Below, piece after piece: positions 2,237-25,922 of a stretch of 31,652 bases of DNA. Source of the stretch: Nitrospirota bacterium. GTDB taxonomy: Bacteria; Nitrospirota; Thermodesulfovibrionia; Thermodesulfovibrionales; Dissulfurispiraceae. Every line of letters starts with the position of its first letter. The stretch's first letter is position 1. Both the position numbers and the translations under genes were made by a program. The notes below the pieces were generated by a model. That model was not told where the DNA came from, ran no database searches, and saw nothing but the letters and a program-made list of their open reading frames with translations. The stretch spans positions 1 to 31,652 of the forward strand of contig DUZI01000001.1 of the NCBI GenBank assembly GCA_013349595.1, given 5' to 3'.

Positions 2237-2749
2237 TCATACCGATTCATTAATAATCAGACTTTTGTCATCAATAAAGGCCTTTGCCTCTAAGATAACT
2301 ATATTCCCCTTTGAAATACCTCTCACATATCCCTCTGGATAGGAACTTAGAGTTGGGATGTTTGTATCAATAGAATCTTCCTTTATTTTTTGGACTAATC
2401 CTATTTTATCAACTATAATAGAAGTTACAAACTCATCGCAAGAGATTATTATTAATTTACTTTTTTCATCATTATCTCTACAAGATATGCCAAAGATTAC
2501 TCTTAAATCAATAATAGGCAATATAAGCCCCCTATAATTAACTACACCAAAAAGAAAAGCTGGAGAAGATGGAACCTTAATGACATCATAAGTGACAAAA
2601 ACCTCCTTTATAAATTTTGTCTCAAAGGCATATCTTTCACCACAAAGGACAAAATCAAGCACCTCTATCTCCTTTCTACTGTCATCCTTTATTGTCCTTT
2701 CCCTGCTAATTAATTGTGCCCTCTTTCTTAATATGTCCTCTTTTTTCAT
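2237..2749 (-). CDS. cheW: CheW adaptor, with an N-terminal extension typical of ACF/Wsp-like systems
   Basis: ERYAFE, VPSSPAFLFGVVNYRGLILPIIDL; N-terminal ILRKRAQL helix. Confidence 0.9.
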   Translation of the reverse strand: MKKEDILRKRAQLISRERTIKDDSRKEIEVLDFVLCGERYAFETKFIKEVFVTYDVIKVPSSPAFLFGVVNYRGLILPIIDLRVIFGISCRDNDEKSKLIIISCDEFVTSIIVDKIGLVQKIKEDSIDTNIPTLSSYPEGYVRGISKGNIVILEAKAFIDDKSLIINESV

Positions 2750-4203
2750 TTAATCTTTATCTCCTTTATATGTGAATGAGATAATTCAAGTATCCTTCCT
2801 ACATTCATCTCTAAGTCTTCAATAACCTGTTCTTTGTCTGTCATGGCAAGAGAGTCAATAACATTTTGAAACTCCTTTAAAGCCTCTTCTTTTTTATGAG
2901 ACCTCAATAATAAATTAGCAAGTCTAAATCTTACAGAGACTAAATCATTTTTGATATATAAAACATTTCTCCAGGTCTCTAAAGCGCCCAGCAAATTACC
3001 ACTTTCTTCTAAGATAACAGCCTTTAAAAAGTAGGCTTTTAAATCAAGTTTGTTAATATTAATTGCCTTATTTAAAATTGCAAGGGCTTCATCTAAAAGC
3101 CCTGAGTTTGCCTTATCCTGTGCCTTTTTTAAGAGATTACTTAATAAACCATCCTTTTCTCCATTAGAAGACTCAACGGGAATGTTTTTTGTGTGGGTAC
3201 CCTTTGATTTTTTTGATACTCTCTCATATCTCTTTACTTCTTTAGTAATATCAACAGACTGATTAAGTTTATAAGATTTTAAATCAAACTGATCCAATAA
3301 ATTATCAATTTTATCTGAAGTAGTTGAATTAACTGATTTTGTATCTACTTTTAATAACTTGGGCTGTTTTTTAAAGACCACATAGCCATCAAAACTTATT
3401 GGATTTAGATATGAATTGCTATATGCCTGCATATCTACTGGTGATGTTATAAGCCATCCATTGACAAATAGTAGATTAGTGAGAAAATCCAACACCTTTG
3501 TCCTAAGTGCTTCGTTAAAATACATTATGACATTTCTACAAAAAATCACATCATAGAGGCATAATTTTTTTGACTGCCTATCACTTTCTGATGCAAGGTT
3601 AAATTGATAAAACTCAACAAACCTCTTTAATTTTGGAGAAATTTCATAGAGACCTTTCTTTATTTCTACAAAATGTTCCTTCTTTAACCACTCTGGTGCC
3701 CCCCTAAAAGACCATTCTTTATAAATGCCTGATTTGGCTTTATCAAGGGAAGCCGAATTAATATCGAAAGCCATGATTTTTATATCCCAACCTTTAAGGA
3801 TAGAGCTTAACTTGTCAATAATTATTGCAATAGAATATGGTTCCTCACCTGTAGAACAACCAGCACTTAGAATATTTATTTCTTTATGGGATAAATTTTT
3901 TTTGTCTCTGACTATCTCTGGAATTATATTATCTTGAAGTATCTGAAAGGATTTCATATCCCTCATGAAAAAGGTCTCTCCTACTGTTAGATATTGAGCT
4001 AATGTTGTCAAATCGTTTCTGTCAAGAGATCTTTCAGAGAGTAGAAGAAGAAGTCTGTCATAGTCCTTTATACCCTTTTCTTTCATGAAGGCCTTTAGTC
4101 TCTGCTCAAATTCTTTTATACGATTTTCTTGATAATAAAGACCTAATTGTTCATTAACTAAAGAGCTAAGCTTTAAAAGGACTTCTGTATTCACAATCGT
4201 CAA
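2746..4203 (-). CDS. cheR: CheR methyltransferase with C-terminal TPR region (WspC/FrzF-like)
   Basis: TVGETFFMRD, SAGCSTGEEPYS, DVIFCRNVIMYF; C-terminal TPR-like helices (AYFLKAVILEESG). Confidence 0.9.
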   Translation of the reverse strand: MTIVNTEVLLKLSSLVNEQLGLYYQENRIKEFEQRLKAFMKEKGIKDYDRLLLLLSERSLDRNDLTTLAQYLTVGETFFMRDMKSFQILQDNIIPEIVRDKKNLSHKEINILSAGCSTGEEPYSIAIIIDKLSSILKGWDIKIMAFDINSASLDKAKSGIYKEWSFRGAPEWLKKEHFVEIKKGLYEISPKLKRFVEFYQFNLASESDRQSKKLCLYDVIFCRNVIMYFNEALRTKVLDFLTNLLFVNGWLITSPVDMQAYSNSYLNPISFDGYVVFKKQPKLLKVDTKSVNSTTSDKIDNLLDQFDLKSYKLNQSVDITKEVKRYERVSKKSKGTHTKNIPVESSNGEKDGLLSNLLKKAQDKANSGLLDEALAILNKAININKLDLKAYFLKAVILEESGNLLGALETWRNVLYIKNDLVSVRFRLANLLLRSHKKEEALKEFQNVIDSLAMTDKEQVIEDLEMNVGRILELSHSHIKEIKIK

Positions 4204-8320: not shown

Positions 8321-9223
8321 TTATAACTTCCTATATACTGAGTTTGAGACCCTTGTATATGGCAAATTCATACCACTCATCGTCTCTGAATGACCAATGA
8401 ACAAAAAACCACCTTCTTTTAGACAATTATAAAATCTCATAAAAAGTCTCTCTTGAGTTTCTTTGTCAAAATATATAACGACATTCCTACAAAATATAAT
8501 ATCAAGGGGTTCACGAAAACAAAAGTCTGTATCCATAAAATTTAAAACCCTAAATCTTATCTTTGACCTTAATTCAGGCACAAATCTGACAAGTCCTCTC
8601 GACCTATCCTTGCTCTTTAGTAGATATTTTTTTCTCAAATCTATGGGTATTCCACCAATCTTATCATCCTCATATATACCTCTTTTGCCTATTTCAAGAA
8701 CCCTTTGAGATATATCTGAGGCAATAATAAGGAAATCAAAGCCCTTTCCCTGACACCTTTCTTTGAACTCATTTAAAACCATAGCAATCGTATAAGGCTC
8801 TTCGCCAGTAGAACACCCCGCACTCCATATGACAAAAGGCTCTTTAATACCGCTATGGTAATTTATTACCAAATCTGGCAACGCTGATCTTATTAAAAAG
8901 TCAAATTGTTCAGCCTCCCTAAAGAATTCAGTCTTGTGTGTCGTAACAAGATCAATCATGTGTATGAGTTCATCTTTCATCCCTTCAGGACTGAAAACAT
9001 AATCACAATAATCTGAAAACGAATTTAAATGAAGCGCCCTTACTCGCTTTTGTAACCTTGACTCCAGGAGCGTCTTCTTAGCAGGAGGCATCTTGACACC
9101 AAGATTTGACTCTATAAAATCGCTTAATCTTTTAAAGTCTTTTTCTGTAAGAGTATAACCTGTATAGAAAGATTTTGGAATATTATCATCAATATCAAGT
9201 TCTAATCCCTTTTTGACAGCCAT
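8321..9223 (-). CDS. cheR: CheR methyltransferase
   Basis: TTHKTEFFRE, WSAGCSTGEEPYT, DIIFCRNVVIYF. Confidence 0.96.
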   Translation of the reverse strand: MAVKKGLELDIDDNIPKSFYTGYTLTEKDFKRLSDFIESNLGVKMPPAKKTLLESRLQKRVRALHLNSFSDYCDYVFSPEGMKDELIHMIDLVTTHKTEFFREAEQFDFLIRSALPDLVINYHSGIKEPFVIWSAGCSTGEEPYTIAMVLNEFKERCQGKGFDFLIIASDISQRVLEIGKRGIYEDDKIGGIPIDLRKKYLLKSKDRSRGLVRFVPELRSKIRFRVLNFMDTDFCFREPLDIIFCRNVVIYFDKETQERLFMRFYNCLKEGGFLFIGHSETMSGMNLPYTRVSNSVYRKL

Positions 9224-9816
9224 TATCTATTATTTATACCTTTCCAAATTAGAGGAATTGACAAGGCAAACAAGGTAATCTTAATCAAATCCCCCACCAC
9301 AAAGGGATAAAATCCCAACTGCAAAAGGGATTCCCTACCCACATAAATAGATAAAACCGATAATCCAAAAATATAAATGACCAAATTGCCAGCTAATATT
9401 GACATAACTGCCTTTAATGGATTTCTATCCCAACCCCTTTGGGCAAAATAACCCACAATATAGGCTGCAGGTACAAATCCAATTATATATCCACCTGTTG
9501 GACCTAATAAATGATGGAACCCTCCCTTAAATCCAGCAAATACAGGGAGCCCCATTACGGCTTCGATTATATAAAAAATCGCACTTAAGGCGCCTCTTTT
9601 GGCACCAAGCATAGTGCCTACAACCAACACCCCTAAGGTTTGTCCTGTAATAGGAACTGGAGTAAATGGTAAAGGTATGGCGATTTGCGCCGAAAGGGCA
9701 ATCAACATACTACCTAAAAAAGCAATGATAATGTGATTATATGATTCCCTTCCTTTGATAATAAAATCAACTAAAACTGGTCTTAAGACAACGGTGTTCA
9801 TTTTGTTCCTCCTCAT
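9223..9816 (-). CDS. bioY: BioY biotin transporter (ECF S-component); start may be the second Met
   Basis: PVPITGQT, GLPVFAG..GG, GPTGGYIIGF, PFVVGDLIK. Confidence 0.93.
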   Translation of the reverse strand: MRRNKMNTVVLRPVLVDFIIKGRESYNHIIIAFLGSMLIALSAQIAIPLPFTPVPITGQTLGVLVVGTMLGAKRGALSAIFYIIEAVMGLPVFAGFKGGFHHLLGPTGGYIIGFVPAAYIVGYFAQRGWDRNPLKAVMSILAGNLVIYIFGLSVLSIYVGRESLLQLGFYPFVVGDLIKITLFALSIPLIWKGINNR

Positions 9817-12720: not shown

Positions 12721-13306
12721 TTAATGAAATACCTGTAATCTATTCTTACCACTTACAAGTCTAAACGATTCCAGCAACACCTCCTTAACATTTTCGATTA
12801 ATGGTTTGTCATGACCTGAATAAATTACCTTTAAATTTAAATTATCCAAAAACTCACAAAAGACTTCATCATAAGTAACATCTTGACTTAAGCCCCTTAT
12901 GGGTGTGTCTCCACTAAATAACACACCTTCGCTCTTACATAAAGACAGATTGAATCACTTGAATGAACAGGGCAATGAATAACCTCAAAATACCTGTCAC
13001 CAACTCTTATACTTTGACCATTTTTTAGTATTTCATCAATACCTTGAGCCTCCACATAAGCAAATACAGTGGGATTATATCTCTGCTTGATAGCCATCAA
13101 TCCACCTGTGTGATCAAAAGTATCACTTGATCTATTCTCTTTTTGCCTACGCCTGTGTTTATCTGCTCTATCTCTTCAATTATTGTGTCATCAGTGCCCA
13201 CATCTATTAGTGTGTTCACATCGTCAAGGGTATTCCAATCTCCAAGTATGAGATAAGGATTAGCTGAATATATCTTCTTGCTCTTGTTTAGACATATGAT
13301 CCTCAT
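12721..13306 (-). pseudogene. MBL-fold metallo-hydrolase pseudogene (two frameshifts)
   Basis: Three consecutive ORF fragments join into LIDVGT...VIL/FDHTGGL...HCPVHSSDSICLY/EGVLFSGDTP; the THxH part of the HxHxDH motif is missing at the first break (~13115) and the second break is at ~12930. Confidence 0.85.
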
Positions 13307-13332
13307 TTTTTGCTATTTAAATCCTCTTTTTA

Positions 13333-13930
13333 TCATCGTCTCCTAAATACTTGTCCCTCACCTGAAACCTGTTCAAAGAGGTGAGAGAGTTCAGGGGGTA
13401 TCTTTTGGGTCTGCTCTGTGGCAAATATACCACCTGTTACAAAAGATTTTTGAAACATCTTTATGACCTCCACCCTTTCAAGTCGTTGTAAATGAAGAGG
13501 GACATTTTTACATATTATCAGATTAAAATTAAAGTTATTGCTTATGGGTTGAAAGCTTAAGAGGTCATGCTTTTGATAAATTGTCCTCTCTCTTATGGCA
13601 TCAATTACCTTGTAATAGCCATTTCTTTGAGAAGGTGCAAAATACTTATCAAAGATCTCCCTATCTACTCTTTCAAGGTCTTCTCTTTTGTATTCCCCAG
13701 ACTTTACTATATCACCAAAGTCTGGGCTTTCCTCCTTATCGGTTGCGTAAATTATTTTTGTAACCAAAATAACCGAGTTTTTCAGCTAATACAATTGCAA
13801 TCGTATATGTCTCCTGCCCCATTGCACAACCGGCATCCCAAATCTTTAGAGAACCCTTAAAATCTTGTAATAGATACTTTACGGCTAAATCTATGACCTG
13901 AATATCTCTAAAGAAATATGTAAATGCCAA
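13333..13930 (-). pseudogene. Short CheR-like methyltransferase (catalytic domain only), frameshifted
   Basis: FTYFFRD, IWDAGCAMGQETYTIA in one frame; IYATD...LIICKNV in another; break near 13755-13765; TTG start with GAGG upstream. Confidence 0.85.
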
Positions 13931-14304: not shown

Positions 14305-16479
14305 CTATTTTTTGCCTAATTCTTCCTTCTCAAAGGAATGAACCAAGTGTGGCACATCTATGATTAACGCCACTGTGCCATCACCAAGAATAGTGGCACC
14401 TGAAATGCCTTCAATCTGCCTAAATATCTTGCTGAGCGACTTGATTACTGCCTGAACCTCCCCAAAGAGTTCATCCACAATAAGTCCTGTCTTATTTCCA
14501 CCATATTGAACTATTACGATGTTTTCAAACTTTAAATCAATCTTCCTTTCATTGAAGAAGTCTCTTAACCTTATAAACGGTAATACCTCACCCCTTAAAT
14601 TAATATATTTCTTGGTGAGGGCTTCATTTCTTGCAGAATCAGAAAGCTCAACACACTCAACTATCATATCAAGAGGTATTACATACCTTGAATCACCTAC
14701 ACCAACCATAAATCCATCAATAATTGCCAATGTAAGTGGTAATCTTATCTGGACTGTAGTCCCCTTGCCCTCTTGACTCTTCATACCAACATTGCCGCGA
14801 AGTGCCTCAATATTCTTTCTTACTACATCCATGCCCACACCCCTGCCTGAGAACTTTGTGACCTTCTCAGCAGTAGAAAAACCAGGCTCAAAGACAAGGC
14901 GAAATATCTCACTTTCAGAGAGATTTACCCCTTGGGTGATTAATCCCCTATCAATGGCCTTCTGTAAAATCTTATCCTTTGCAAGCCCCTTGCCGTCATC
15001 AACAACCTCTATTACAATACTCCCTGCGTCATGGTAAGCATTGAGCAATATGGTGCCACGCCTTGGTTTTCCTATAGATTCTCTTACTTCTGGGATTTCG
15101 ATTCCATGGTCAGCAGCATTTCTAACAAGATGCATTAAAGGGTCACCAATCTTTTCTATGACAGTCTTGTCCAGCTCTGTATCACCACCATTTATGACCA
15201 AATCAATCTCCTTGCCAAAATCTTTGCTGATATCCCTGACAATCCTGTTAAATTTATTAAAAGTTTCTGCTATAGGCACCATCCTGATGGTCATTGCATT
15301 GTCCCTGATGTCTTCAACAAGTCGAGACATTACAGATACAGACTCAAAAAGACCTGAATCTTTAATCCTATTTGAATGTTGGGCTACATTTGCATAGGCA
15401 ATGACCAATTCACCAACCGTATTGATGAGCATATCAAGCTTGTTTGCATCAATCTTAAGTGTGCTTGCCTCATGAGACTTTACCTCAATAGCCTTCTTTT
15501 GTTTCTCAACGGCAGCGGAGACTACCTCAGGATGAACCATCCTTTCCTTGACAAGGATCTCACCTAAGGGGACTAACTTATGTGCCTCTTTGTCCTCCGA
15601 CCTTGACTGTAATTTTAAAGCCTCTTCGAGTTCTGCCTCTGTGAGTGCACCTCCTTTAACAAGTAATTCACCAAGCCTTAAAGGGTCTTCAGGCAGGTTA
15701 TTTATAAATTTTACATAATCTTCAATTTTGCTATGAGGTGGTAATATATGTATATCACAATCTTCACGAACAAACTCAAAGACATCTTCGATATCCTTTT
15801 TTAAAAAATCACACTTAAAGTCAATCTCAAAACCAAGATAACAACTCTCAGGGTCAATCTCACTTATCATAGGAATCTTCTCTGTAAGGGTAGTGATATA
15901 GATAATCTCTCCCATTCTCGTCAAATAATTGATAAAAGATAGAGGATCCATCCCACTTCTTAAGACATCCTTGCCAAACCGAAGTGATATATGCCATGTA
16001 TCAGCACCAATGCATTGTAATTGCTGTGTAGGCAAATCGGCTTTGTCATCTACTTGAGTTATTTCTATTGGCTTTTCTTGTGGTTTTAAGCCAAGATACC
16101 TTTCAAGCTGAACTGTAAGAACCTTTTCAAACTCTATAGATGAAGGACCTGTCTCACTCCTTTCGGGTAGTTCAATGAGTGATGTGATATGGTCTCTACA
16201 TTTAAGCAGCAAATCAATGAGTTCATTATCAATCTTTAACTCTCCCTGCCTTACCTTTTCAAGGACACTCTCTACCTTGTGGGTGAATTTTTCAACCATG
16301 TCAAGTCCAATGATACCTGCTGAACCTTTTATAGTGTGAGCTGCCCTAAAGAGTGCATTAATCGTTGCTTCATCTTGAGGATTACCCTCAAGCACTAAAA
16401 GGGCACTTTCCATCTCCTGAAGTGAATCTGCACTTTCAGAAATAAAAACCTTACGGGTTATATCAAGATCAAGATCCAT
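14305..16479 (-). CDS. cheA: CheA histidine kinase with an MshEN-like insertion
   Basis: Hpt FRAAHTIKG, HLVRNAADHG, DDGKG, GFSTA...SGRGVGMDVV, C-terminal CheW-like P5 domain. Confidence 0.97.
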   Translation of the reverse strand: MDLDLDITRKVFISESADSLQEMESALLVLEGNPQDEATINALFRAAHTIKGSAGIIGLDMVEKFTHKVESVLEKVRQGELKIDNELIDLLLKCRDHITSLIELPERSETGPSSIEFEKVLTVQLERYLGLKPQEKPIEITQVDDKADLPTQQLQCIGADTWHISLRFGKDVLRSGMDPLSFINYLTRMGEIIYITTLTEKIPMISEIDPESCYLGFEIDFKCDFLKKDIEDVFEFVREDCDIHILPPHSKIEDYVKFINNLPEDPLRLGELLVKGGALTEAELEEALKLQSRSEDKEAHKLVPLGEILVKERMVHPEVVSAAVEKQKKAIEVKSHEASTLKIDANKLDMLINTVGELVIAYANVAQHSNRIKDSGLFESVSVMSRLVEDIRDNAMTIRMVPIAETFNKFNRIVRDISKDFGKEIDLVINGGDTELDKTVIEKIGDPLMHLVRNAADHGIEIPEVRESIGKPRRGTILLNAYHDAGSIVIEVVDDGKGLAKDKILQKAIDRGLITQGVNLSESEIFRLVFEPGFSTAEKVTKFSGRGVGMDVVRKNIEALRGNVGMKSQEGKGTTVQIRLPLTLAIIDGFMVGVGDSRYVIPLDMIVECVELSDSARNEALTKKYINLRGEVLPFIRLRDFFNERKIDLKFENIVIVQYGGNKTGLIVDELFGEVQAVIKSLSKIFRQIEGISGATILGDGTVALIIDVPHLVHSFEKEELGKK

Positions 16480-16790
16480 TAGTTTCCTCCTCCATGAGGC
16501 AATAAATATTCTGAAACCCTATATAATTCCATCAAGGTATTGACAGCGTCACTTTTATCTTTGATAACAAAGCCCTTGCCTTCGGACTCGCATTGTTTCT
16601 TAAGTGCTACAATAATCTGAAAACCTGATGAGTCAATCTCCGATACCATTGACAAATCAATCTCTAAAGTTGAAAGACTAAATATATCAGGATTTTTAAG
16701 AGAATTAGTAATCTCTTGGGCATTAAATATATTCATCTCTCCATCTATAGTTACTATCACCTTGTCAGATTTTTTTTCAATTTGAACCAT
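16479..16790 (-). CDS. STAS domain protein
   Basis: IDGEMNIF...IDLSMVSEIDSSGFQ; TAATG overlap with cheA. Confidence 0.9.
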   Translation of the reverse strand: MVQIEKKSDKVIVTIDGEMNIFNAQEITNSLKNPDIFSLSTLEIDLSMVSEIDSSGFQIIVALKKQCESEGKGFVIKDKSDAVNTLMELYRVSEYLLPHGGGN

Positions 16791-16793
16791 CAG

Positions 16794-17270
16794 TTAACCT
16801 TCCTTTTGTATTTGATTATCTAAAAAAAGCAAAAATTCTTTTAATTCAATTATAAAATCATTTGTAACCTGCCTGTGTTTTTTAATTAAGAAATCAATCT
16901 TGTCTTTCTTCAACTCAAAGCCATAGATATTTCTAAAGAGATGCCTAAAAGAGAGATAATCATAAAGTTGTCCTGCTAAACTGTTAGATATTAAGGCAGG
17001 TCGAATCCCATCAATATTAATAGTCATTTTATAAAGAAGCGCCTTATGCCATCTATCAGACTCATCAAGAGAACCATTCATTTCAAAGGCGACCTTTTTA
17101 AAAATCCTTTCACAGCAATTATAAAAATCATGTAAGATTGAACCTTTACTCCTTAAATACACAGGGGTATTTTTTGACTTTATGGCACCTAATTCATCGG
17201 AGAGCCTTTCAAGGTTTTCCAACTCTTTTACAATCTCAGCCTTTAATGTCAATAATATTATTCTATCCAA
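16794..17270 (-). CDS. HEPN (HepT-like) ribonuclease toxin candidate
   Basis: LHDFYNCCERIF, WHKALL, FRHLFRNIYG; directly downstream of an MNT gene. Confidence 0.8.
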   Translation of the reverse strand: MDRIILLTLKAEIVKELENLERLSDELGAIKSKNTPVYLRSKGSILHDFYNCCERIFKKVAFEMNGSLDESDRWHKALLYKMTINIDGIRPALISNSLAGQLYDYLSFRHLFRNIYGFELKKDKIDFLIKKHRQVTNDFIIELKEFLLFLDNQIQKEG

Positions 17271-17583
17271 TCCTTACACCCCTTGTGATTACATAGTCCT
17301 TAAAATCATTAGTAAGGTCTTCAAAGGGTTTTAAATCTATCTGAAAATCACTCTCCCTGATTAACAAGGCATAGGCTTTAAAGAAATCCTCTGCACTCAA
17401 GCCTTTTATGACCAAGTCAATATCTGAATGTCTGTGAAAACCCTCTTTTAATATTGAGCCACATAGATATAATTCATCAAAGACAAAGCTATCTTTTAAG
17501 AGGGATACAAGCCTGTCAATACCTTTTATAGCCCTTTGTCTATGGGCTTGACGCCTTTCTCTTATAACAGAGAGCAGAGACAT
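17263..17583 (-). CDS. Minimal nucleotidyltransferase (MNT/MntA-like antitoxin)
   Basis: GS...SDIDLVI and a third Asp in IDL; 106 aa; overlaps the HEPN start. Confidence 0.85.
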   Translation of the reverse strand: MSLLSVIRERRQAHRQRAIKGIDRLVSLLKDSFVFDELYLCGSILKEGFHRHSDIDLVIKGLSAEDFFKAYALLIRESDFQIDLKPFEDLTNDFKDYVITRGVRIG

Positions 17584-17587
17584 TGTT

Positions 17588-17956
17588 TTAAGGTAATATT
17601 AGCTTTTCAATTGCTGAAAGCATCTGCTCAGGCTTGAAAGGCTTTACTACCCATGCCTTTGCACCTGCTGCCCTACCTTCCTGTTTCTTTGCCTCTTGAG
17701 ATTCTGTGGTGAGCATTATTACTGGTGTGAACTTATAGTTAGGTTTGTTTTTAAGCTCTTTTAAGAAGGTTATACCATCCATATTTGGCATGTTAACATC
17801 ACAAATTATAAGATTTACCTTTTGACCTGTGAGCTTATATAGTGCATCTTTTCCATCAGTTGCCTCAATAACATCATAACCTGCTTTTTTTAATGTTACA
17901 GATACTACTTGTCTTAATGTTGCAGAATCATCAATTATCATAATTGTCTTTGCCAT
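17588..17956 (-). CDS. cheY: CheY single-domain response regulator
   Basis: IIDDS, ICDVNMP, MLTTES, VVKPF. Confidence 0.93.
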   Translation of the reverse strand: MAKTIMIIDDSATLRQVVSVTLKKAGYDVIEATDGKDALYKLTGQKVNLIICDVNMPNMDGITFLKELKNKPNYKFTPVIMLTTESQEAKKQEGRAAGAKAWVVKPFKPEQMLSAIEKLILP

Positions 17957-19677: not shown

Positions 19678-20694
19678 ATGAAATCTTTGAGGTCAACTTT
19701 TATCAAACAATGTAAACTCTGTAACACAGAAGGTGTAATTTTATATAAAGCCCTTACAGACATCTTAGGCACTATCGAAGGCTCTTGGGATGTAAATAAA
19801 TGCCCTAATTGTGGACTTCAATGGCTAATCCCAATGCCCATTAGTGATGACATCTACCTTGCCTATTCAGAGTATCCCACTCATGAATATGAAAGAATTA
19901 AAAATAAGTCTCTAAAAGAAAGGATTAAATTAGGATACCTTGCAAATAAATATGGTTATACAAAAGAAAAGGTCAATTTAATTGATAAAATCTTGGGCTT
20001 AATCCTTCTACCCTTTCCTTTTAAAAGGGTCTCCCTTGACTTTTGGTTTAATGTGCTAAAAGGAATAAAGGGTAAAGGTAGATTGCTTGATATAGGTTGC
20101 GGCAATGGGGAGTTAGTTGAGATGATGAATAATTGGGGCTGGCAGGCAGAGGGAATTGAAGTTGATTACAAGGCAGTTGATGTTGCCAGGTCAAGAGGAC
20201 TTAAGGTTACTCAAGGTGACTTTCTTGAAATTGATTTGTCTCTTGAAGCCTTTGATGCTATAATATCAAGCCATGTCTTTGAGCATGTTTATGAACCAAT
20301 TGACTTTTTAAAAAAGTGTTATAAGGCAATCAAACCAAATGGTATCATTTGCATAGCCACACCTAATTCAGAATCACTACAAAATAGTATATTTAAAAAA
20401 AACTGGATGGCTCTTGATGCACCAAGACATCTTTATCTTTACAATCCATCATCTATGGCTCTATGTGCTAAAAAAGCTAATATTAATTACTATGAAATAA
20501 AGACTACCTCTCGTGGAAGTCGCTTTATTGCCTCAGCAAGCCTTATGATCCAAAAGACTGGTCAGTATCATTGGAATGATAAAATTGATTTTCATGGTTT
20601 CTTTTTTTCAAACACCATCGAACTTTTGGAATATATAATACTTTTATATAAAAAAAACAAAGGCGTTGAGATGCTCTTTATTGCAAGAAAATGA
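19678..20694 (+). CDS. Class I SAM-dependent methyltransferase with an N-terminal CxxC-CxxC ribbon
   Basis: CKLC...CPNCG, LLDIGCGNG, SHVFEHV, DAPRHL. Confidence 0.88.
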   Translation: MKSLRSTFIKQCKLCNTEGVILYKALTDILGTIEGSWDVNKCPNCGLQWLIPMPISDDIYLAYSEYPTHEYERIKNKSLKERIKLGYLANKYGYTKEKVNLIDKILGLILLPFPFKRVSLDFWFNVLKGIKGKGRLLDIGCGNGELVEMMNNWGWQAEGIEVDYKAVDVARSRGLKVTQGDFLEIDLSLEAFDAIISSHVFEHVYEPIDFLKKCYKAIKPNGIICIATPNSESLQNSIFKKNWMALDAPRHLYLYNPSSMALCAKKANINYYEIKTTSRGSRFIASASLMIQKTGQYHWNDKIDFHGFFFSNTIELLEYIILLYKKNKGVEMLFIARK

Positions 20695-21689
20695 TTTCAA
20701 GAGATGATATTGTCATAGTAACAGTGACCTATTCTGAACGATGGGATTATCTCAAAAAATCCATCAAATCGTGCATATTACAAGGCATAAGGAACTTTGT
20801 CATTTTTGCTAACGGGATTAAATACAATCTTAACGAAAAGATAACCCAGGAATTTTCAAATAGAGGAGATATTATTTTTAATATCTTAAGCGAAAAGACC
20901 AATAAGGGATCTGCCTTTGGCTACAACCTTGCCATTTCAGAGGCATTTAAGTCCAATAAATCCTATATAATGTTGCTTGACGATGATGGCGAATTACAAG
21001 AGGGCTGTATTAACAAACTCATAGATGCATATGATTTACTTAGCAAAGAATACGGCATAGATAATCTTATGATTAGTGCCTTAAGGAAAGAGCATATAAG
21101 TGATATTAAAGAAGGCATCATAGAAAGGATGAGAAAAAATGCCTTTAGGAGATTTCACATAGCTGAGATATTTCACAGAATAATGAGGCATTCAATAATC
21201 ACCTACCCTGAAAAGATTGCTATCCCCTATGCTGTATATAGCGGGCTTTTTTTTCACAAATCCGTAATCAATAGGTTTGGACTGCCAAATAAATCCTTTT
21301 GTCTTTATGGAGATGACTTGGAGTTTACCTATCGTATGACATCAAATGGTGGGGTAATATTTCTAATTACAAATGCACAGATAAGCGATATTCAGATGTC
21401 TTGGTGGTGTAGAAAAAGTTATGGAAATCCCTTTGATGCCCTTATACTTGGGGGTATTGACAGACTTATCTATTATGCCTTTAGAAATGAGGTATATTTT
21501 GAGAAATACTGTTGCAAAAAGACGGGAATTATCTATAATCTCCACAAATATACTTTTATGCTAATCCTGTTCTTAAATGCCTTAAGACATAGGAGATTAA
21601 AGAGATTCAAGATCCTCTTAGATGCCCTAAAAGATGGAAACAAAGGCATATTGGGTGAGAACATAAACTATCCCCTGAATAACGATTAA
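20691..21689 (+). CDS. Glycosyltransferase family 2
   Basis: VTVTYS, NKGSAFG, LLDDD, GLPNKSFCLYGDDLEF. Confidence 0.88.
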   Translation: MISRDDIVIVTVTYSERWDYLKKSIKSCILQGIRNFVIFANGIKYNLNEKITQEFSNRGDIIFNILSEKTNKGSAFGYNLAISEAFKSNKSYIMLLDDDGELQEGCINKLIDAYDLLSKEYGIDNLMISALRKEHISDIKEGIIERMRKNAFRRFHIAEIFHRIMRHSIITYPEKIAIPYAVYSGLFFHKSVINRFGLPNKSFCLYGDDLEFTYRMTSNGGVIFLITNAQISDIQMSWWCRKSYGNPFDALILGGIDRLIYYAFRNEVYFEKYCCKKTGIIYNLHKYTFMLILFLNALRHRRLKRFKILLDALKDGNKGILGENINYPLNND

Positions 21690-21701
21690 TGAGCATATCT
21701 T

Positions 21702-22679
21702 ATGGTTTATATAATCTTAATTAACTACAATGGCTGGCATCATACAATCTTATGTCTTGAAAGTCTTTTAAATTTAGACTACGAAGAATTTAAGATAATA
21801 ATTATAGATAATGGCTCAAGGGATAGCTCTGTTGACATTATCAAGATGTGGCTTGACAATAGGTTATGTGCTTATATTGACAAAGGACATCCTCTACGAA
21901 GCCTTATAGATTCATCAATGGCACGAGATTATAAAAAAATCAATCTTATCGAGAATAATCATAATCTCGGCTTTGCAGGTGCTAATAATAAAGGCATGCA
22001 GATTGCCCTATCAGATGATGCTTGCAAATATGTTTGGTTATTAAATAATGACACCATTGCATCAAGGGATAGTCTAAAGAAGATGATTAGTTGTGCTGAA
22101 AATAAAGCAAACAAAAAGATTGGTATAATTGGCAGTAAGTTAATGTATTTTGACAGTCCAGAGGTAATAAATGGGCTTGGTGGAAAGTATATTAAATGTA
22201 TTGGCAAACCCATTCAATTAGGTATCAATGAGATTGACAGAGGACAATCTTTTAAAGAGATTGATTATGTCATTGGTGCGTCTATGCTTGTTAGAAAGGA
22301 ATTTATTATTGATGTAGGCTTATTATCTGAGGATTACTTTCTCTATTATGAGGAATTGGACTGGTCTATAAGGGCAAAGCAGAAAGGTTGGCAGATAATG
22401 CAATGCAATGAAGCCATAGTCTATCACAAAGAAGGCTCAACAATTGGCTCAAACAAGAGATTAAAAACAAAGACAGTTGTTACTGATTACTACACCAATA
22501 GAAACAGGATTTTGATAACTAAAAGGTATTTTCCGCTTTACCTACCTACTGTCTTAATGGCATCTGTCATCAATTGTATCTTGAGGGCATGGCAAGATGG
22601 CTACTCAACAATAGGAATAATTTGTAAGGCAATCTTGCACGGACTAAATGGTAAAAAGGCTTTCTATGAAGGATTATAA
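21702..22679 (+). CDS. Glycosyltransferase family 2 (rhamnosyltransferase-like)
   Basis: IILINYNG, IDNGS, NLGFAGANN, LLNNDT, FLYYEELDW. Confidence 0.92.
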   Translation: MVYIILINYNGWHHTILCLESLLNLDYEEFKIIIIDNGSRDSSVDIIKMWLDNRLCAYIDKGHPLRSLIDSSMARDYKKINLIENNHNLGFAGANNKGMQIALSDDACKYVWLLNNDTIASRDSLKKMISCAENKANKKIGIIGSKLMYFDSPEVINGLGGKYIKCIGKPIQLGINEIDRGQSFKEIDYVIGASMLVRKEFIIDVGLLSEDYFLYYEELDWSIRAKQKGWQIMQCNEAIVYHKEGSTIGSNKRLKTKTVVTDYYTNRNRILITKRYFPLYLPTVLMASVINCILRAWQDGYSTIGIICKAILHGLNGKKAFYEGL

Positions 22680-23787
22680 AATAGCACTCATTCACGATTG
22701 GCTTGTCACAATAGCTGGTGCAGAATCAGTCTTAAGCACAATCTATGAACTTTATCCAGCTGATATTTTTACCCTTGTTTCAAATACAGATGCACTCAGG
22801 GGAACTATTTTTGAAAATGCCACAGTCTATGAGTCCTTTATAAAAAAAATGCCTTTTTCAATAAAACATTACAGAAAATACCTTCCCATTATGCCACTTG
22901 CCATTGAGGACTTTGACCTAAGAGACTATGATATAGTCATCTCAAGCAGCCATGCAGTAGCAAAAGGGGTATTGACCTCATCAAGACAACTCCATATATC
23001 TTACATCCACACACCTATGAGATATGCTTGGGATATGTATCACTTGTATTTAAAACAAGCTGGACTTCAAGGCTCTCTCAAGGGATTACTTGCAAAGCTT
23101 ATATTACACTACTTACGACTGTGGGACTACCAGTCTATTGACAGGGTTGACTATATCATTGCCAATTCAAACTATGTAAAAAAGAGGATTTACAAGATTT
23201 ACAAAAGAGATTCAGAGGTAATCTATCCACCCGTTGATTTATCAGGCTTTGATTATCAAAAGAAAAAAGATGATTATTTTATTACCATCTCAAGACTTGT
23301 CCCCTATAAAAGAATTGATTTGATAGTCACTGCCTTTAGTCAAATGCCTGAACTGAGGTTGATTGTCATTGGTGATGGGCCTGATATGGATAAGATAAGT
23401 TCATTGGCAAAATCCAATATTGAACTCCTTGGTTGGCAATCAAAGGACCATCTTAAGGACTATTTAGAGTCTGCGAGGGCTTTTGTCTTCTCTGCAGAAG
23501 AAGACTTTGGGATTGTGCCTGTGGAGGCACAGGCTTGTGGATGTCCTGTAATTGCCTATTCACAAGGAGGCACCTCTGAAACAGTTGTAAATGGCAAGAC
23601 TGGTATATTCTTTCACAGCCAGTCCGTTGATGCCATTATGAAAGGGGTTAGAGAATTCATTCAGATAGAGAATAGTTTTGATTCAAAAACTATCAGAGAA
23701 AATGCTGAGAGATTTAGTAAGGATAAGTTCAAGTCTGCCTTTACTAATTTTGTTGAGACAAAGGTGAAGGTGTTTTTTAATGAATAA
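22666..23787 (+). CDS. Glycosyltransferase family 4 (WbaZ-like); start adjusted from 22648
   Basis: KIALIHDWL..GAE.V, SSSHAVAKG, HTPMRYAWD, EEDFGIVPVEAQACG. Confidence 0.9.
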   Translation: MKDYKIALIHDWLVTIAGAESVLSTIYELYPADIFTLVSNTDALRGTIFENATVYESFIKKMPFSIKHYRKYLPIMPLAIEDFDLRDYDIVISSSHAVAKGVLTSSRQLHISYIHTPMRYAWDMYHLYLKQAGLQGSLKGLLAKLILHYLRLWDYQSIDRVDYIIANSNYVKKRIYKIYKRDSEVIYPPVDLSGFDYQKKKDDYFITISRLVPYKRIDLIVTAFSQMPELRLIVIGDGPDMDKISSLAKSNIELLGWQSKDHLKDYLESARAFVFSAEEDFGIVPVEAQACGCPVIAYSQGGTSETVVNGKTGIFFHSQSVDAIMKGVREFIQIENSFDSKTIRENAERFSKDKFKSAFTNFVETKVKVFFNE

Positions 23788-25198
23788 CACACTTTACTTA
23801 GTAATTCTAATCATTACAGACCTAATCGCCTTTTACATATCCTTTGCCCTTGCATATATCACAAGGCTCGGCTTAAATCTGATATTTGCTGGGCTGCCAA
23901 TCTTTGATATACCTATGTCATTTTTCATCAGACAAATTTGGATACCTTTAATACTATTGTCCCTTTTATGGTATCAAGGGCTATATATAAAGAGACAAAA
24001 CTTCTGGCTTGATGCAAAAGACATTACAAAGTCTGTATTATTCTCATTAATAATTGTCCTTGCAGTTATTACATTGTCAAAAATGACTGATGAGATATCA
24101 AGGCTTTTTGTGTTGTTAATGTTTGTTTATTGTCTTTTTATCACACCACTAACAAGGCTCTTTGTAAAAAAAATACTTCATTTAAGGGGATTTGCCACTC
24201 AGAAAGTAGTCTTAATTTGTCCTATGGAAGATGTTAATAATTTATCTCAACTAATTGAAGGAGATAAGTATTTAGGCTTTCAGATAGGAGCCATATTTAG
24301 CAATGAAAGGGCAGAGATAAGTATTGACGGGAGAATAGTAAAAATTTACAAGTCAACAAAATGGCTAAAAAGGATTGCCCAGATAATCTCAGCCCAGACT
24401 GCCTTTGTCTCATTCAGAAATGAAATGGCTTCGGAAGTCAATATTCGTCAGATACAGATGATGGTTAAAAAAATCTATGTCATCCCAGATATAGATTTGA
24501 TAACCCATCTAAAGACGGAGATTATCCCACTTTTACGAGATGATTTGCCCTTACTGTTTATTAAAAACAATCTAAAAGAGCCTGTAAATACGATTCTTAA
24601 AGGCATATTCGACTATATCTTTACAATTTTGCTTTTTCCGTTTTTTATTCCCCTTGTCCTTTTATCAGCTGTATTGATAAAGATTGATTCAAGGGGTCCT
24701 GTATTTTTTAAACAAAAAAGGGTAGGTAAAGGTGGGAAGGAGTTTGAAGTTTATAAATTTAGGACTATGTATCTTGACAACCAGTCAAGGCTTGATAAAT
24801 ACCTTAAAGCAAACCCAGAGGCAAGAGAACAAATGGAGATGTTTTGTAAACTAAAAGATGACCCAAGGATAACTCACATTGGAAGACTTTTAAGAAAGAC
24901 CTCTATTGATGAACTCCCACAATTAATCAATGTCCTCAAGGGTGAGATGAGTCTTGTAGGTCCAAGACCTGCCTTTAAAGAAGAACTATCAAACTATTAC
25001 AGAGATTTGGCTGATTTTTATAAAGAAGTCAAGCCTGGAATAACAGGACTCTGGCAAGTATCAGGACGAAATCAACTTACTATGAAAGATAGGGCAAGGC
25101 TTGAAGCCTTTTATGTGATTAACTGGTCTCTTTGGTTTGATATAGTTATACTGTTTAAAACTATAAAGGTAGTATTAAAAAAAGAGGGTGCCTATTAG
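23780..25198 (+). CDS. wbaP: Undecaprenyl-phosphate hexose-1-phosphate transferase (WbaP/WcaJ family)
   Basis: N-terminal TMs; YKFRTM, DDPRIT, RKTSIDELPQL, GEMSLVGPRP, KPGITGLWQVSGR. Confidence 0.9.
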   Translation: MNNTLYLVILIITDLIAFYISFALAYITRLGLNLIFAGLPIFDIPMSFFIRQIWIPLILLSLLWYQGLYIKRQNFWLDAKDITKSVLFSLIIVLAVITLSKMTDEISRLFVLLMFVYCLFITPLTRLFVKKILHLRGFATQKVVLICPMEDVNNLSQLIEGDKYLGFQIGAIFSNERAEISIDGRIVKIYKSTKWLKRIAQIISAQTAFVSFRNEMASEVNIRQIQMMVKKIYVIPDIDLITHLKTEIIPLLRDDLPLLFIKNNLKEPVNTILKGIFDYIFTILLFPFFIPLVLLSAVLIKIDSRGPVFFKQKRVGKGGKEFEVYKFRTMYLDNQSRLDKYLKANPEAREQMEMFCKLKDDPRITHIGRLLRKTSIDELPQLINVLKGEMSLVGPRPAFKEELSNYYRDLADFYKEVKPGITGLWQVSGRNQLTMKDRARLEAFYVINWSLWFDIVILFKTIKVVLKKEGAY

Positions 25199-25202
25199 AA
25201 GA

Positions 25203-25922
25203 TCAGAGCAGATCCTTTAACTCATTGACTATACTTTTTAGTCTTTCTTTTTTTTGGAGTTCAACTACATCAAACTTAAAGGCAAAACGTGCTTTATCAG
25301 ATGACATATTTATATCAAGTGCCTGTATCCTTATTACTACCGCATTAACCACAAAAGTTTCACCTGAACCATTGTTCAAAAAACTGATAGATACCTTATC
25401 AAGGATATTAGGGATTGGCTCTTTTGTATTTAAATTCATTAATATGCCACCAAAGCTAATATCAACAATATCACCGTTGGTCTTTTTATCACTAAAGGAA
25501 ATCTCCACCTTGCCAGATAATCCATGCCTTTCATGCTCCCTGCGGTCAAACTTTTCGTGTATCTCTGCCAACTTCCTTATAAAAGCATCTATGGTAAAAG
25601 GCAGAGTTATAAAGCCATCTGCCCCCTCTTTTAAGCTATTTATAACATCCTCTTTATCATTTCTTGAAGCGATAATTAGGGCATAGGAGTTTTTTATTTG
25701 TTTTGACTTAAAGGTCTTCAGAAGTTCTAAATGATTAAGTTCCTTATCAGTTATATTTATGACAATTAAATCATAATCTTTCTCTTGAATCTTGATTAAG
25801 GCATCTAAAAAATCATTTGAGTCATCAATATCAACCTCCCGATAAGCCTTCTCAAGTGCAAACTTCAGGTTGTTTCTTTGTTCCTTTGAACTATCAACTA
25901 GGATAAATTTTAGCCCGTTCAT
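25203..25922 (-). CDS. Degenerate receiver domain fused to PilZ
   Basis: REC-like N-terminus lacking the phospho-Asp and conserved Lys; RREHER and DISFGG PilZ motifs. Confidence 0.82.
   Translation of the reverse strand: MNGLKFILVDSSKEQRNNLKFALEKAYREVDIDDSNDFLDALIKIQEKDYDLIVINITDKELNHLELLKTFKSKQIKNSYALIIASRNDKEDVINSLKEGADGFITLPFTIDAFIRKLAEIHEKFDRREHERHGLSGKVEISFSDKKTNGDIVDISFGGILMNLNTKEPIPNILDKVSISFLNNGSGETFVVNAVVIRIQALDINMSSDKARFAFKFDVVELQKKERLKSIVNELKDLL

Follow-up and report, generated by a model that had tools for sequence, protein, structure and literature searches.

An MshEN_N-type four-helix bundle as a probable c-di-GMP receptor module in the chemotaxis kinase CheA of a Nitrospirota bacterium

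The window analyzed in this study, a stretch of 31,652 nucleotides from an uncultured Thermodesulfovibrionales-like Nitrospirota bacterium, encodes a CheA for which our best explanation is that residues 268–339 constitute a genuine four-helix receptor module for c-di-GMP of the MshEN_N type. The module lies between the P2-position domain and P3, and the kinase is otherwise complete and catalytically intact. We assign this explanation, including the mechanism proposed below, a probability of roughly 60%. Its observed basis consists of the homology and the fold of the segment, the conservation of the ligand-contacting residues, and the c-di-GMP enzymes that the genome encodes. This CheA is a further example of an already known, widespread family, and the outcome for this window is a sound annotation, not a discovery.

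The cheA gene (positions 14305–16479, minus strand) was identified from its open reading frame and translation, its Pfam domains, and the NCBIfam CheA model (453.6 bits), and encodes a protein of 724 amino acids. Encoded on the minus strand are the P1/Hpt domain (16198–16452, aa 10–94; Pfam PF01627, E = 5.3e-18), a conserved P2-position alpha/beta domain (15742–15996, aa 162–246; AF2 model, pLDDT 84–93), the whole MshEN_N-type four-helix bundle (15463–15675, aa 269–339; AF2 models and VIA-align), the P3 dimerisation domain H-kinase_dim (15286–15465, aa 339–398; Pfam PF02895), the P4 kinase domain HATPase_c (14731–15144, aa 446–583; Pfam PF02518), and the P5 CheW-like domain (14335–14715, aa 589–715; Pfam PF01584). 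In the translation, the HTIKG phosphorylation site was intact and the kinase boxes were legible, and P3 was superposed by VIA-align on 1b3q_A with a Z of 9.1, an rmsd of 1.3 Å, and 37% identity. With Hpt, H-kinase_dim, HATPase_c, and CheW all present and MshEN_N placed directly before H-kinase_dim, the protein has the CheA-MshEN_N architecture catalogued by Wang et al. (2016) (Nat Commun 7:12481, PMC5013675; Suppl. Table 4, Suppl. Fig. 3), whose entries for this architecture came from Actinobacteria and Proteobacteria only. A second CheA is encoded by the genome (contig C116, 608 aa), and it lacks both a P2-like domain and MshEN_N. The ParP-binding "LID" insert of Vibrio/Pseudomonas CheA was also considered as the identity of the segment and was ruled out, as the segment is devoid of the LID-defining EFExLLD repeats.

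A sequence-only reading of this DNA had proposed a tandem MshEN-type c-di-GMP-binding motif just ahead of the dimerisation domain. Minus-strand translation of 15607–15678 and 15499–15570 gave exactly RLGELLVKGGALTEAELEEALKLQ (motif I, aa 268–291) and PLGEILVKERMVHPEVVSAAVEKQ (motif II, aa 304–327), each of 24 residues and separated by the 12-residue spacer SRSEDKEAHKLV (15571–15606, minus strand, aa 292–303), and a further 12 residues lead from the end of motif II to the start of P3, so that both the coordinates and the placement held. The plus strand of 15499–15678 is interrupted by stops throughout.

Motif I departs from the strict MshEN consensus solely by an Ala at position 11, in keeping with the single deviation noted in the sequence-only reading. 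In motif II, the consensus residues are replaced by Pro at position 1, by Arg at position 10 (the position of the turn Gly), by Met at position 11, and by Val at positions 17 and 21; against the relaxed motif that Wang et al. (2016) used for searching, motif II fails at position 10 only. Both motifs possess the Gly at position 3 (G270 and G306) and the Gln at position 24 (Q291 and Q327), and the hydrophobic positions 2, 17, and 21 are occupied by L269, L284, and L288 in motif I and by L305, V320, and V324 in motif II. Two features are each found in motif I alone: the turn Gly at position 10 (G18 and G47 in MshE) is G277 in motif I and R313 in motif II, and the Arg at position 1 is R268 in motif I and P304 in motif II. 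The tandem arrangement is retained, with a spacer of 12 residues versus 5 in Vibrio cholerae MshE and 5 to ~9 among the MshEN-type domains compared; in the AF2 model, its first half extends helix 2 and the remainder forms a loop. Pro at position 1 is compatible with binding, and the position-1 Arg is dispensable: mutation of this residue in MshE, where it stacks on a guanine, shifts the affinity less than 5-fold (PMC5013675), while PilF GSPII-C, with Pro at motif II position 1, shows an MshE-like c-di-GMP affinity, and GSPII-B, with Lys and Leu at position 1, binds at 6 nM (PMC11731258).

Profile and sequence searches supported the homology. The NCBIfam model NF053729 (c-di-GMP_motif, MshE-related) matched the whole CheA with 41.1 bits (cut-off 38, E = 1.1e-10) and the isolated segment (aa 258–335) with 49.5 bits, and it also matched 62/62 diverse homologous segments at E ≤ 0.01. 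Against the PDB sequences, phmmer retrieved GSPII-C, the third domain of MshEN type in Thermus thermophilus PilF (E = 1.6e-7), and MshE (5HTL; E = 0.0076), and a search with the region only brought up PilB proteins bearing Pfam PF05157. The HMM search suggested by the sequence-only reading was therefore positive with NF053729, but Pfam PF05157 (MshEN/T2SSE_N) itself gave no match at E ≤ 1 to either the whole CheA or the isolated segment. This miss constitutes no argument against homology because, of the two subdomains, the CheA has just the N-terminal four-helix one, and based on the absence of a PF05157 match and on the bundle being directly followed by P3, the protein was assigned to the N-subdomain only.

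The predicted fold was in good agreement with this assignment. In the AF2 model, the bundle consists of helices 269–275, 281–297, 305–311, and 317–339 with a 5-residue break before P3, and the helix 3–turn–helix 4 element is still formed with R313 (pLDDT 85–94). Exhaustive comparison by VIA-align placed it closest to MshE in complex with c-di-GMP (5htl_B; Z 8.8, rmsd 2.7 Å over 59 residues), PilF GSPII-C (6f8l_G; Z 8.7), GSPII-B in complex with c-di-GMP (8pdk_A; Z 8.4, rmsd 1.8 Å over 56 residues), and X. citri PilB (7lkm_A; Z 8.2), followed by XpsE (Z 6.8), unrelated chains scoring 6.6 or lower. Over 56–60 aligned residues, the identity to the solved MshEN domains was 30–38% with an rmsd of 1.8–2.7 Å, and the superposition on MshE and PilF recurred with a larger AF2 model. 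In Foldseek, MshEN/GSPII domains took each of the top 15 places for the 78-residue model, and 11 of these structures contained bound c-di-GMP; the E values (0.13–0.5) were non-significant. With a three-domain model, ferredoxin-like folds filled the list, which was thus uninformative on MshEN.

Conservation among homologues was then the point on which the sequence-only reading had made its proposal refutable. The Gly at position 3 and the Gln at position 24 of both motifs were invariant in 191 homologues, namely 120 close ones and 71 from named genomes (37–56% identity), and within motif I of the former set Leu6 and Leu21 were invariant as well. The curated HMM, the fold, and this conservation of the ligand-contacting residues agree on the identity of the tandem motif. 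The second copy, which had been described as degenerate, has the form usual for this CheA family: motif II most often starts with Pro, the Leu to Val replacements are typical, and position 10 is not Gly in 43/120 close homologues (77 Gly, 18 Lys, and 11 Arg) and in 45/71 distant ones (26 Gly, 15 Lys, 11 Gln, 5 His, 5 Asn, and 4 Arg). Judging from these alignments, a residue other than Gly at this position looks tolerated, not a sign of decay. The spacer spans 5 to 24 residues across the homologues.

The family proved to be widespread, with at least 575 matching stretches among species-representative genomes and a CheA-MshEN_N in 55/151 sampled genomes of the same phylum. Its carriers include cultured, named bacteria (Stutzerimonas stutzeri, Shewanella, Dechloromonas denitrificans, Methylobacter tundripaludum, and Actinoplanes), and thus its function is directly testable. 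The genome under study itself yielded 13 GGDEF, 4 EAL, and 4 PilZ matches.

Experimental precedent exists for the CheA family itself, more than the sequence-only reading had been aware of: Wang et al. (2016) measured c-di-GMP binding in vitro by residues 261–390 of the Aeromonas veronii CheA (GenBank EKB11881), with a KD of 2.6 μM (Suppl. Table 6, PMC5013675). By eye, 30/55 residues of the motif region are identical between this gammaproteobacterial protein and the Nitrospirota one. The two share the signature of LPED before motif I, the GALT turn, and the VVDAAx.KQ end, and both have a non-canonical spacer longer than 5 residues. They differ at position 1 of motif I (Met in A. veronii, Arg here) and of motif II (Lys there, Pro here), at the motif II turn (Gly there, Arg313 here), and in spacer length (~9 there, 12 here). 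MshE (5HTL) and PilF GSPII-B/C (8PDK, 6F8L) likewise share with the present CheA the two tandem 24-residue motifs, the four-helix bundle, and the Gly, hydrophobic, and Gln contacts, and motif II of GSPII-C starts with PLGEILV exactly as here. In MshE and PilF, which are secretion or pilus ATPases, these domains are N-terminal and are accompanied by an MshEN_C alpha/beta subdomain, whereas the N-subdomain of the present CheA stands alone, embedded in a histidine kinase, and has a longer spacer and no second turn Gly.

In V. cholerae MshE, the Gly backbone amides form hydrogen bonds with the guanines and the Gln side chains with ribose and phosphate, and the G11L and G40I substitutions abolish binding (PMC5013675). 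By analogy, both motifs of the CheA module would clamp one extended c-di-GMP molecule: guanine contacts may come from the backbone amides at G270 and G306, the bases may be packed against two hydrophobic clusters (L269/V320/V324 and L305/L284/L288), and ribose and phosphate may be bound by Q291 and Q327. From these parallels we infer that this copy of CheA binds c-di-GMP and that binding acts, in one direction or the other, on the kinase. Binding would stiffen the bundle, and since no more than 5 residues separate its last helix from P3, this increased rigidity would alter either the reach of P1/P2 to the P4 active site or the seating of P3/P4 in the receptor array, whereby the kinase output could be tuned to the cellular c-di-GMP level. 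The proposal of the sequence-only reading that c-di-GMP acts directly on the kinase thus stands as a putative function and a reasonable hypothesis; a literature search returned no study on the effect of c-di-GMP on the kinase activity of a CheA-MshEN protein.

Where c-di-GMP is known to influence chemotaxis, it does so via PilZ domains, whose targets are the methyltransferase, the receptors, or the motor. MapZ is said to be a PilZ adaptor acting on CheR1, Cbp1 is reportedly a PilZ-containing chemoreceptor, and PlzC reportedly provides a c-di-GMP input to chemotaxis via PilZ in V. cholerae. All of these bring c-di-GMP into the chemosensory pathway as the present CheA would, but by the PilZ route, whereas here the module resides in the kinase itself; if our explanation is true, it would represent a more direct route than the PilZ-mediated ones.

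It is possible, though less likely, that the segment is a true MshEN_N homologue which has lost c-di-GMP binding, at least in this lineage, and now separates P2 from P3 as a rigid spacer or offers a docking site for proteins there. Such cases have precedents, in that XpsE, PilF GSPII-A, and X. citri PilB do not bind c-di-GMP; XpsE and GSPII-A are without any nucleotide ligand, and the N-domain of X. citri PilB binds a PilZ protein instead. XpsE and the PilB–PilZ complex (7lkm) both belonged to the best structural matches. In motif II, the turn Gly gives way to Arg313, and none of the tested MshEN domains that we found has Lys or Arg there; among close relatives, the closest (81% identical) keeps Gly, and two others compared have Lys. 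The 12-residue spacer, the lack of a PF05157 match and of an MshEN_C subdomain, and the KD of the A. veronii fragment, the weakest in its table (PMC5013675), also count against a functional receptor. Furthermore, 7/80 named relatives keep the STAS gene and the matched P2-to-P3 region of CheA without a detectable MshEN_N, and the family can therefore work without it. A docking or spacer role, however, does not readily account for the invariance of Gly3 and Gln24 in both motifs while the surrounding surface varies, since no role of the Gln side chains beyond ribose and phosphate binding has been described in MshE. In addition, the Aeromonas homologue binds c-di-GMP, residues other than Gly at position 10 form the majority of the distant set alongside all the invariant contact residues, and the non-binder XpsE deviates at many key positions while this CheA does so at one.

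A fortuitous likeness between the motif and an amphipathic helical linker rich in Leu and Glu could draw on the near-equal frequency of the single loose 24-residue pattern in real and shuffled ORFs of the same genome (51 vs. 46.6) and on the non-significant Foldseek values, but it was for practical purposes refuted by the NF053729 matches, the retrieval of PF05157-bearing PilB proteins, and the VIA-align superpositions. The position-specific invariance among the homologues also speaks against it, as does a loose tandem pattern found twice (in CheA and in a PilB-sized ORF) versus 0.25 times expected from shuffled ORFs in the whole-genome six-frame comparison.

The P2-position domain has the order strand-helix-strand-strand-helix-strand in the AF2 model, and in VIA-align it matched the T. 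maritima CheA P2 (1u0s_A) with a Z of 7.7 over 77/86 residues, generic ferredoxin-like and ACT folds scoring equally or higher; the Pfam P2 model gave no match on CheA. Directly upstream of cheA lies a gene for an SpoIIAA-like STAS protein (16479–16790, minus strand; Pfam PF01740), whose TAA stop overlaps the cheA ATG (TAATG), indicating translational coupling, and by HMM a STAS gene precedes cheA in 73/80 named relatives. The STAS protein was predicted to dock on the P2-position domain, with an interface at aa 173–215. A similar protein is CheS, which in Sinorhizobium meliloti and Agrobacterium fabrum is encoded within the che operon, consists of a STAS domain only, and binds CheA (reviewed in PMC12654446). 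Both are STAS proteins of about 100 aa encoded beside cheA, but MshEN_N has not been reported in the CheA proteins of these alphaproteobacteria. A far-reaching extension, which we consider improbable, is that in this CheA family one stretch of about 200 residues integrates three signals: the state of the chemoreceptors, c-di-GMP sensed by MshEN_N, and a STAS protein of the partner-switch type docking on the P2-position domain, with c-di-GMP binding deciding between engagement of CheY and of STAS by that domain; if so, the kinase would direct its output either to motility control or to a partner switch for a sigma factor or stress. The same operon contains cheY (17588–17956, minus strand; Pfam PF00072) and encodes a soluble MCP of 433 aa, and its gene order resembles that of F7-type chemosensory clusters.

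The cheA gene of the window (14305-16479, minus strand) encodes a protein of 724 residues, in which Pfam located Hpt (aa 10-94), H-kinase_dim (aa 339-398), HATPase_c (aa 446-583) and CheW-like (aa 589-715) domains. Because the ORF aligned end to end with the CheA model of NCBIfam, and because its translation shows the phospho-accepting HTIKG motif and the kinase boxes, the product is, judging from its sequence, complete and probably an active kinase. Translation of 15499-15678 on the minus strand, where the plus strand is closed as a reading frame by stops, recovered the two 24-residue motifs quoted in the sequence-only reading. They are separated by 12 residues, occupy CheA residues 268-327 (motif I, 268-291; motif II, 304-327) and lie, as had been stated, just ahead of the dimerisation domain P3, since they end at residue 327 and H-kinase_dim starts at 339. 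Motif I indeed departs from the strict MshEN consensus solely by Ala at position 11. Motif II carries Pro at position 1, Arg at 10 (Arg313), Met at 11 and Val at 17 and 21, and its one mismatch to the more permissive pattern used by Wang et al. (2016; PMC5013675) is at position 10. The second CheA of the genome (608 aa, in a separate cluster) possesses neither a P2-like domain nor the N-terminal MshEN subdomain, MshEN_N.

At the sequence level, the resemblance to MshEN exceeded chance on four counts. The HMM check for MshEN turned out positive: the 53-position NCBIfam model NF053729 ([quoted passage not shown]; cut-off 38 bits) gave 41.1 bits (E 1.1e-10) on the whole CheA and 49.5 bits when the segment was scored by itself. 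By phmmer against PDB sequences, T. thermophilus PilF was matched in its third MshEN-type domain (E 1.6e-7), as was V. cholerae MshE 5HTL (E 0.0076), and a database search with the segment alone returned, apart from CheA proteins, PilB ATPases bearing Pfam PF05157. When the six-frame ORFs of that genome were scanned with a loose tandem pattern, two matched, namely the window CheA and a PilB-sized ORF on contig C105, where shuffled ORFs would give 0.25; single matches to the pattern were no more frequent than chance. The CheA segment is almost certainly homologous to MshEN_N.

Structure prediction was in line with this assignment. An AlphaFold2 model of the segment, built on an alignment of 62 diverse homologous segments, consisted of four helices (pLDDT 76), and a larger model of aa 135-402 (pLDDT 85.5) contained the same bundle at around 90, with helices at 269-275, 281-297, 305-311 and 317-339. 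In the predicted model, the first half of the spacer extends helix 2, and five residues separate the last bundle helix from the first P3 helix. The first 15 places of a Foldseek search were held by MshEN/GSPII domains only, 11 of them in c-di-GMP-bound structures (TM 0.56-0.65 and rmsd 1.2-2.7 A for the crystal structures), at E-values that are non-significant for so small a model. In an exhaustive VIA-align search, where unrelated chains scored Z 6.6 and below, the matches included MshE with c-di-GMP (5htl_B, Z 8.8), PilF GSPII-C (6f8l_G, 8.7), PilF GSPII-B with c-di-GMP (8pdk_A, 8.4), X. citri PilB (7lkm_A, 8.2) and XpsE (2d28_C, 6.8). The three-domain model again matched 5HTL and 8PDK, and also CheA P3 (1b3q, Z 9.1, 37% identity).

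Conservation of the motif residues in orthologues, whose failure was to count against the sequence-only reading, was borne out. Gly3 and Gln24 of both motifs were invariant in 120 of 120 close homologues (52-81% identity) and in 71 of 71 distant ones from named genomes (matched P2-to-P3 region 37-56% identical to the query). With three exceptions across both sets, positions 2, 6, 17 and 21 were hydrophobic; motif I had its turn Gly in 115/120 and 71/71, and the spacer ranged from 5 to 24 residues. Position 1 is free to vary, being Leu (54), Arg (38) or Lys (14) in motif I of the close set and most commonly Pro in motif II of the distant set (42/71). Position 10 of motif II was Gly in 77/120 close homologues and only 26/71 distant ones, the others having Lys, Gln, His, Asn or Arg. 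The deviations for which motif II had been called degenerate are therefore normal in this CheA family.

The paper on the MshE structure describes the guanines as held by Gly backbone amides, and ribose and phosphate by Gln side chains; binding is lost in the G11L and G40I variants, and mutation of Arg9 changes affinity less than 5-fold. PilF GSPII-C, whose motif II begins with Pro and shares the start PLGEILV with the window CheA, has an MshE-like affinity for c-di-GMP, and GSPII-B, with Lys and Leu at position 1, binds at 6 nM (PMC11731258). The basic residue at the second turn was the sole deviation for which no experimental precedent could be found.

The fusion of MshEN to CheA was already known, as the sequence-only reading had noted: it was stated by Wang et al. 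(2016; PMC5013675), who reported a KD of 2.6 uM for c-di-GMP with residues 261-390 of Aeromonas veronii CheA (Suppl. Table 6). That protein shares with the window CheA the LPED lead-in, the GALT turn, the VVDAAx.KQ ending and, by eye, 30 of 55 motif-region residues. Our literature search found no later study of c-di-GMP action on an MshEN-bearing CheA; one in-vitro binding measurement and, in that search, no functional study stand for the family. The window CheA is an added member of this catalogued, widespread family, from a phylum absent from the 2016 list. Its closest named counterpart (81% identical) belongs to a Thermodesulfovibrionales MAG. Within the phylum, 55 of 151 sampled genomes carry the P2-like, MshEN_N and P3 region (51 of 110 among those of high quality), and a search of species-representative genomes yielded at least 575 matching stretches, some of them from Beta- and Gammaproteobacteria, Actinoplanes, Holophagaceae and a spirochaete MAG. 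The window's genome (1.93 Mb, 344 contigs, 92% complete), with 13 GGDEF, 4 EAL and 4 PilZ matches and a FliG, encodes enzymes for making and degrading c-di-GMP; three further above-cut-off MshEN-motif matches lie in PilB/GspE-sized ORFs.

The main rival reading makes the segment a structural or docking module that binds no c-di-GMP, like those of XpsE, PilF GSPII-A and X. citri PilB, and was considered less likely. In the window CheA, the well-folded MshEN_N bundle bears all ligand-contacting residues and sits five residues before P3, the kinase itself being intact. Binding of c-di-GMP by this copy is likely, and we put the whole statement, that the module binds c-di-GMP and so tunes the kinase, at about 0.6. 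The ligand would be bound by MshEN_N, as with micromolar affinity in the homologue, and may stiffen the bundle (tested hydrophobic-site variants of MshE gain 5 degrees in melting temperature with ligand); a stiffer bundle could alter how P1 and P2 get to the P4 active site, or how P3/P4 are positioned within the array. The original observation was correct, and its interpretation is supported.

A STAS gene (16479-16790, minus strand) is translationally coupled to cheA, its TAA stop overlapping the cheA ATG (TAATG). By HMM, 73 of 80 named relatives have a STAS ORF immediately ahead of cheA and in the same orientation. Seven of the 73 (Pseudomonas brassicacearum and an Azonexus species among them) keep the cheA region matched by the P2-to-P3 query and gave no match to the CheA-type MshEN_N profile. 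Some lineages have apparently lost MshEN_N or carry a diverged form of it, and these seven are natural comparators. We know of no solved STAS-CheA complex. Complex prediction for CheA 135-402 with the STAS protein scored 0.83 versus 0.01 for the best of three controls, a mark reached by 58 of 80 solved complexes and 2 of 110 mismatched pairs (counts that are rough because own alignments were used); three runs shared at least 98% of contacts, with partner pLDDT of at least 87. The predicted interface comprises CheA aa 173-215 (15835-15963), in the P2-position domain (aa 162-246), and, on the STAS protein, residues 53-66, where the conserved DSSG loop lies, together with 86-95. The confident contacts did not include the MshEN_N bundle, which is no argument against its touching STAS. 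The model supports binding of the STAS protein to the P2-position domain and resembles the CheS-CheA binding reported in S. meliloti (PMC12654446), the window pair being a prediction only.

The operon runs MCP (433 aa), cheY, a HepT/MNT pair, STAS, cheA, about 1.6 kb of broken ORFs, MCP (4HB-HAMP), cheW, bioY, cheR and cheB. In four loci of two relatives (CheA 60% and 79% identical), the order is MCP, cheY, STAS, cheA, MCP and cheW, continuing in the 60% relative with cheR, an HK-like gene, cheD and cheB. This gene order resembles F7-type clusters. The toxin-antitoxin pair of HepT-like (16794-17270) and MNT nucleotidyltransferase (17263-17583) genes, both on the minus strand, is a lineage-specific insertion, because cheY directly precedes STAS in those four loci. 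The short, frame-shifting ORFs between cheA and the next MCP (12721-13930, minus strand), a distance of about 100-350 nt in the four loci, are probably decayed genes or assembly frameshifts; they comprise a Pfam-matched CheR-like piece (13333-13767), its apparent N-terminal continuation (13736-13930) and three fragments of 67-69 aa (12721-13306). The biotin-transporter gene bioY (9223-9816, minus strand) likewise lies between cheW and cheR in the 79% relative, together with an inserted restriction-modification pair. A second, TPR-fused CheR (485 aa) and a second CheW are encoded at 2237-4203 (minus strand), separate from the main operon and following a gene for a UPF0182 membrane protein on its downstream side. 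A REC-PilZ protein of 239 aa (25203-25922, minus strand), likely a second c-di-GMP receptor in the window, adjoins a methyltransferase, glycosyltransferase and sugar-transferase cluster (19678-25198, plus strand) that looks like an exopolysaccharide locus.
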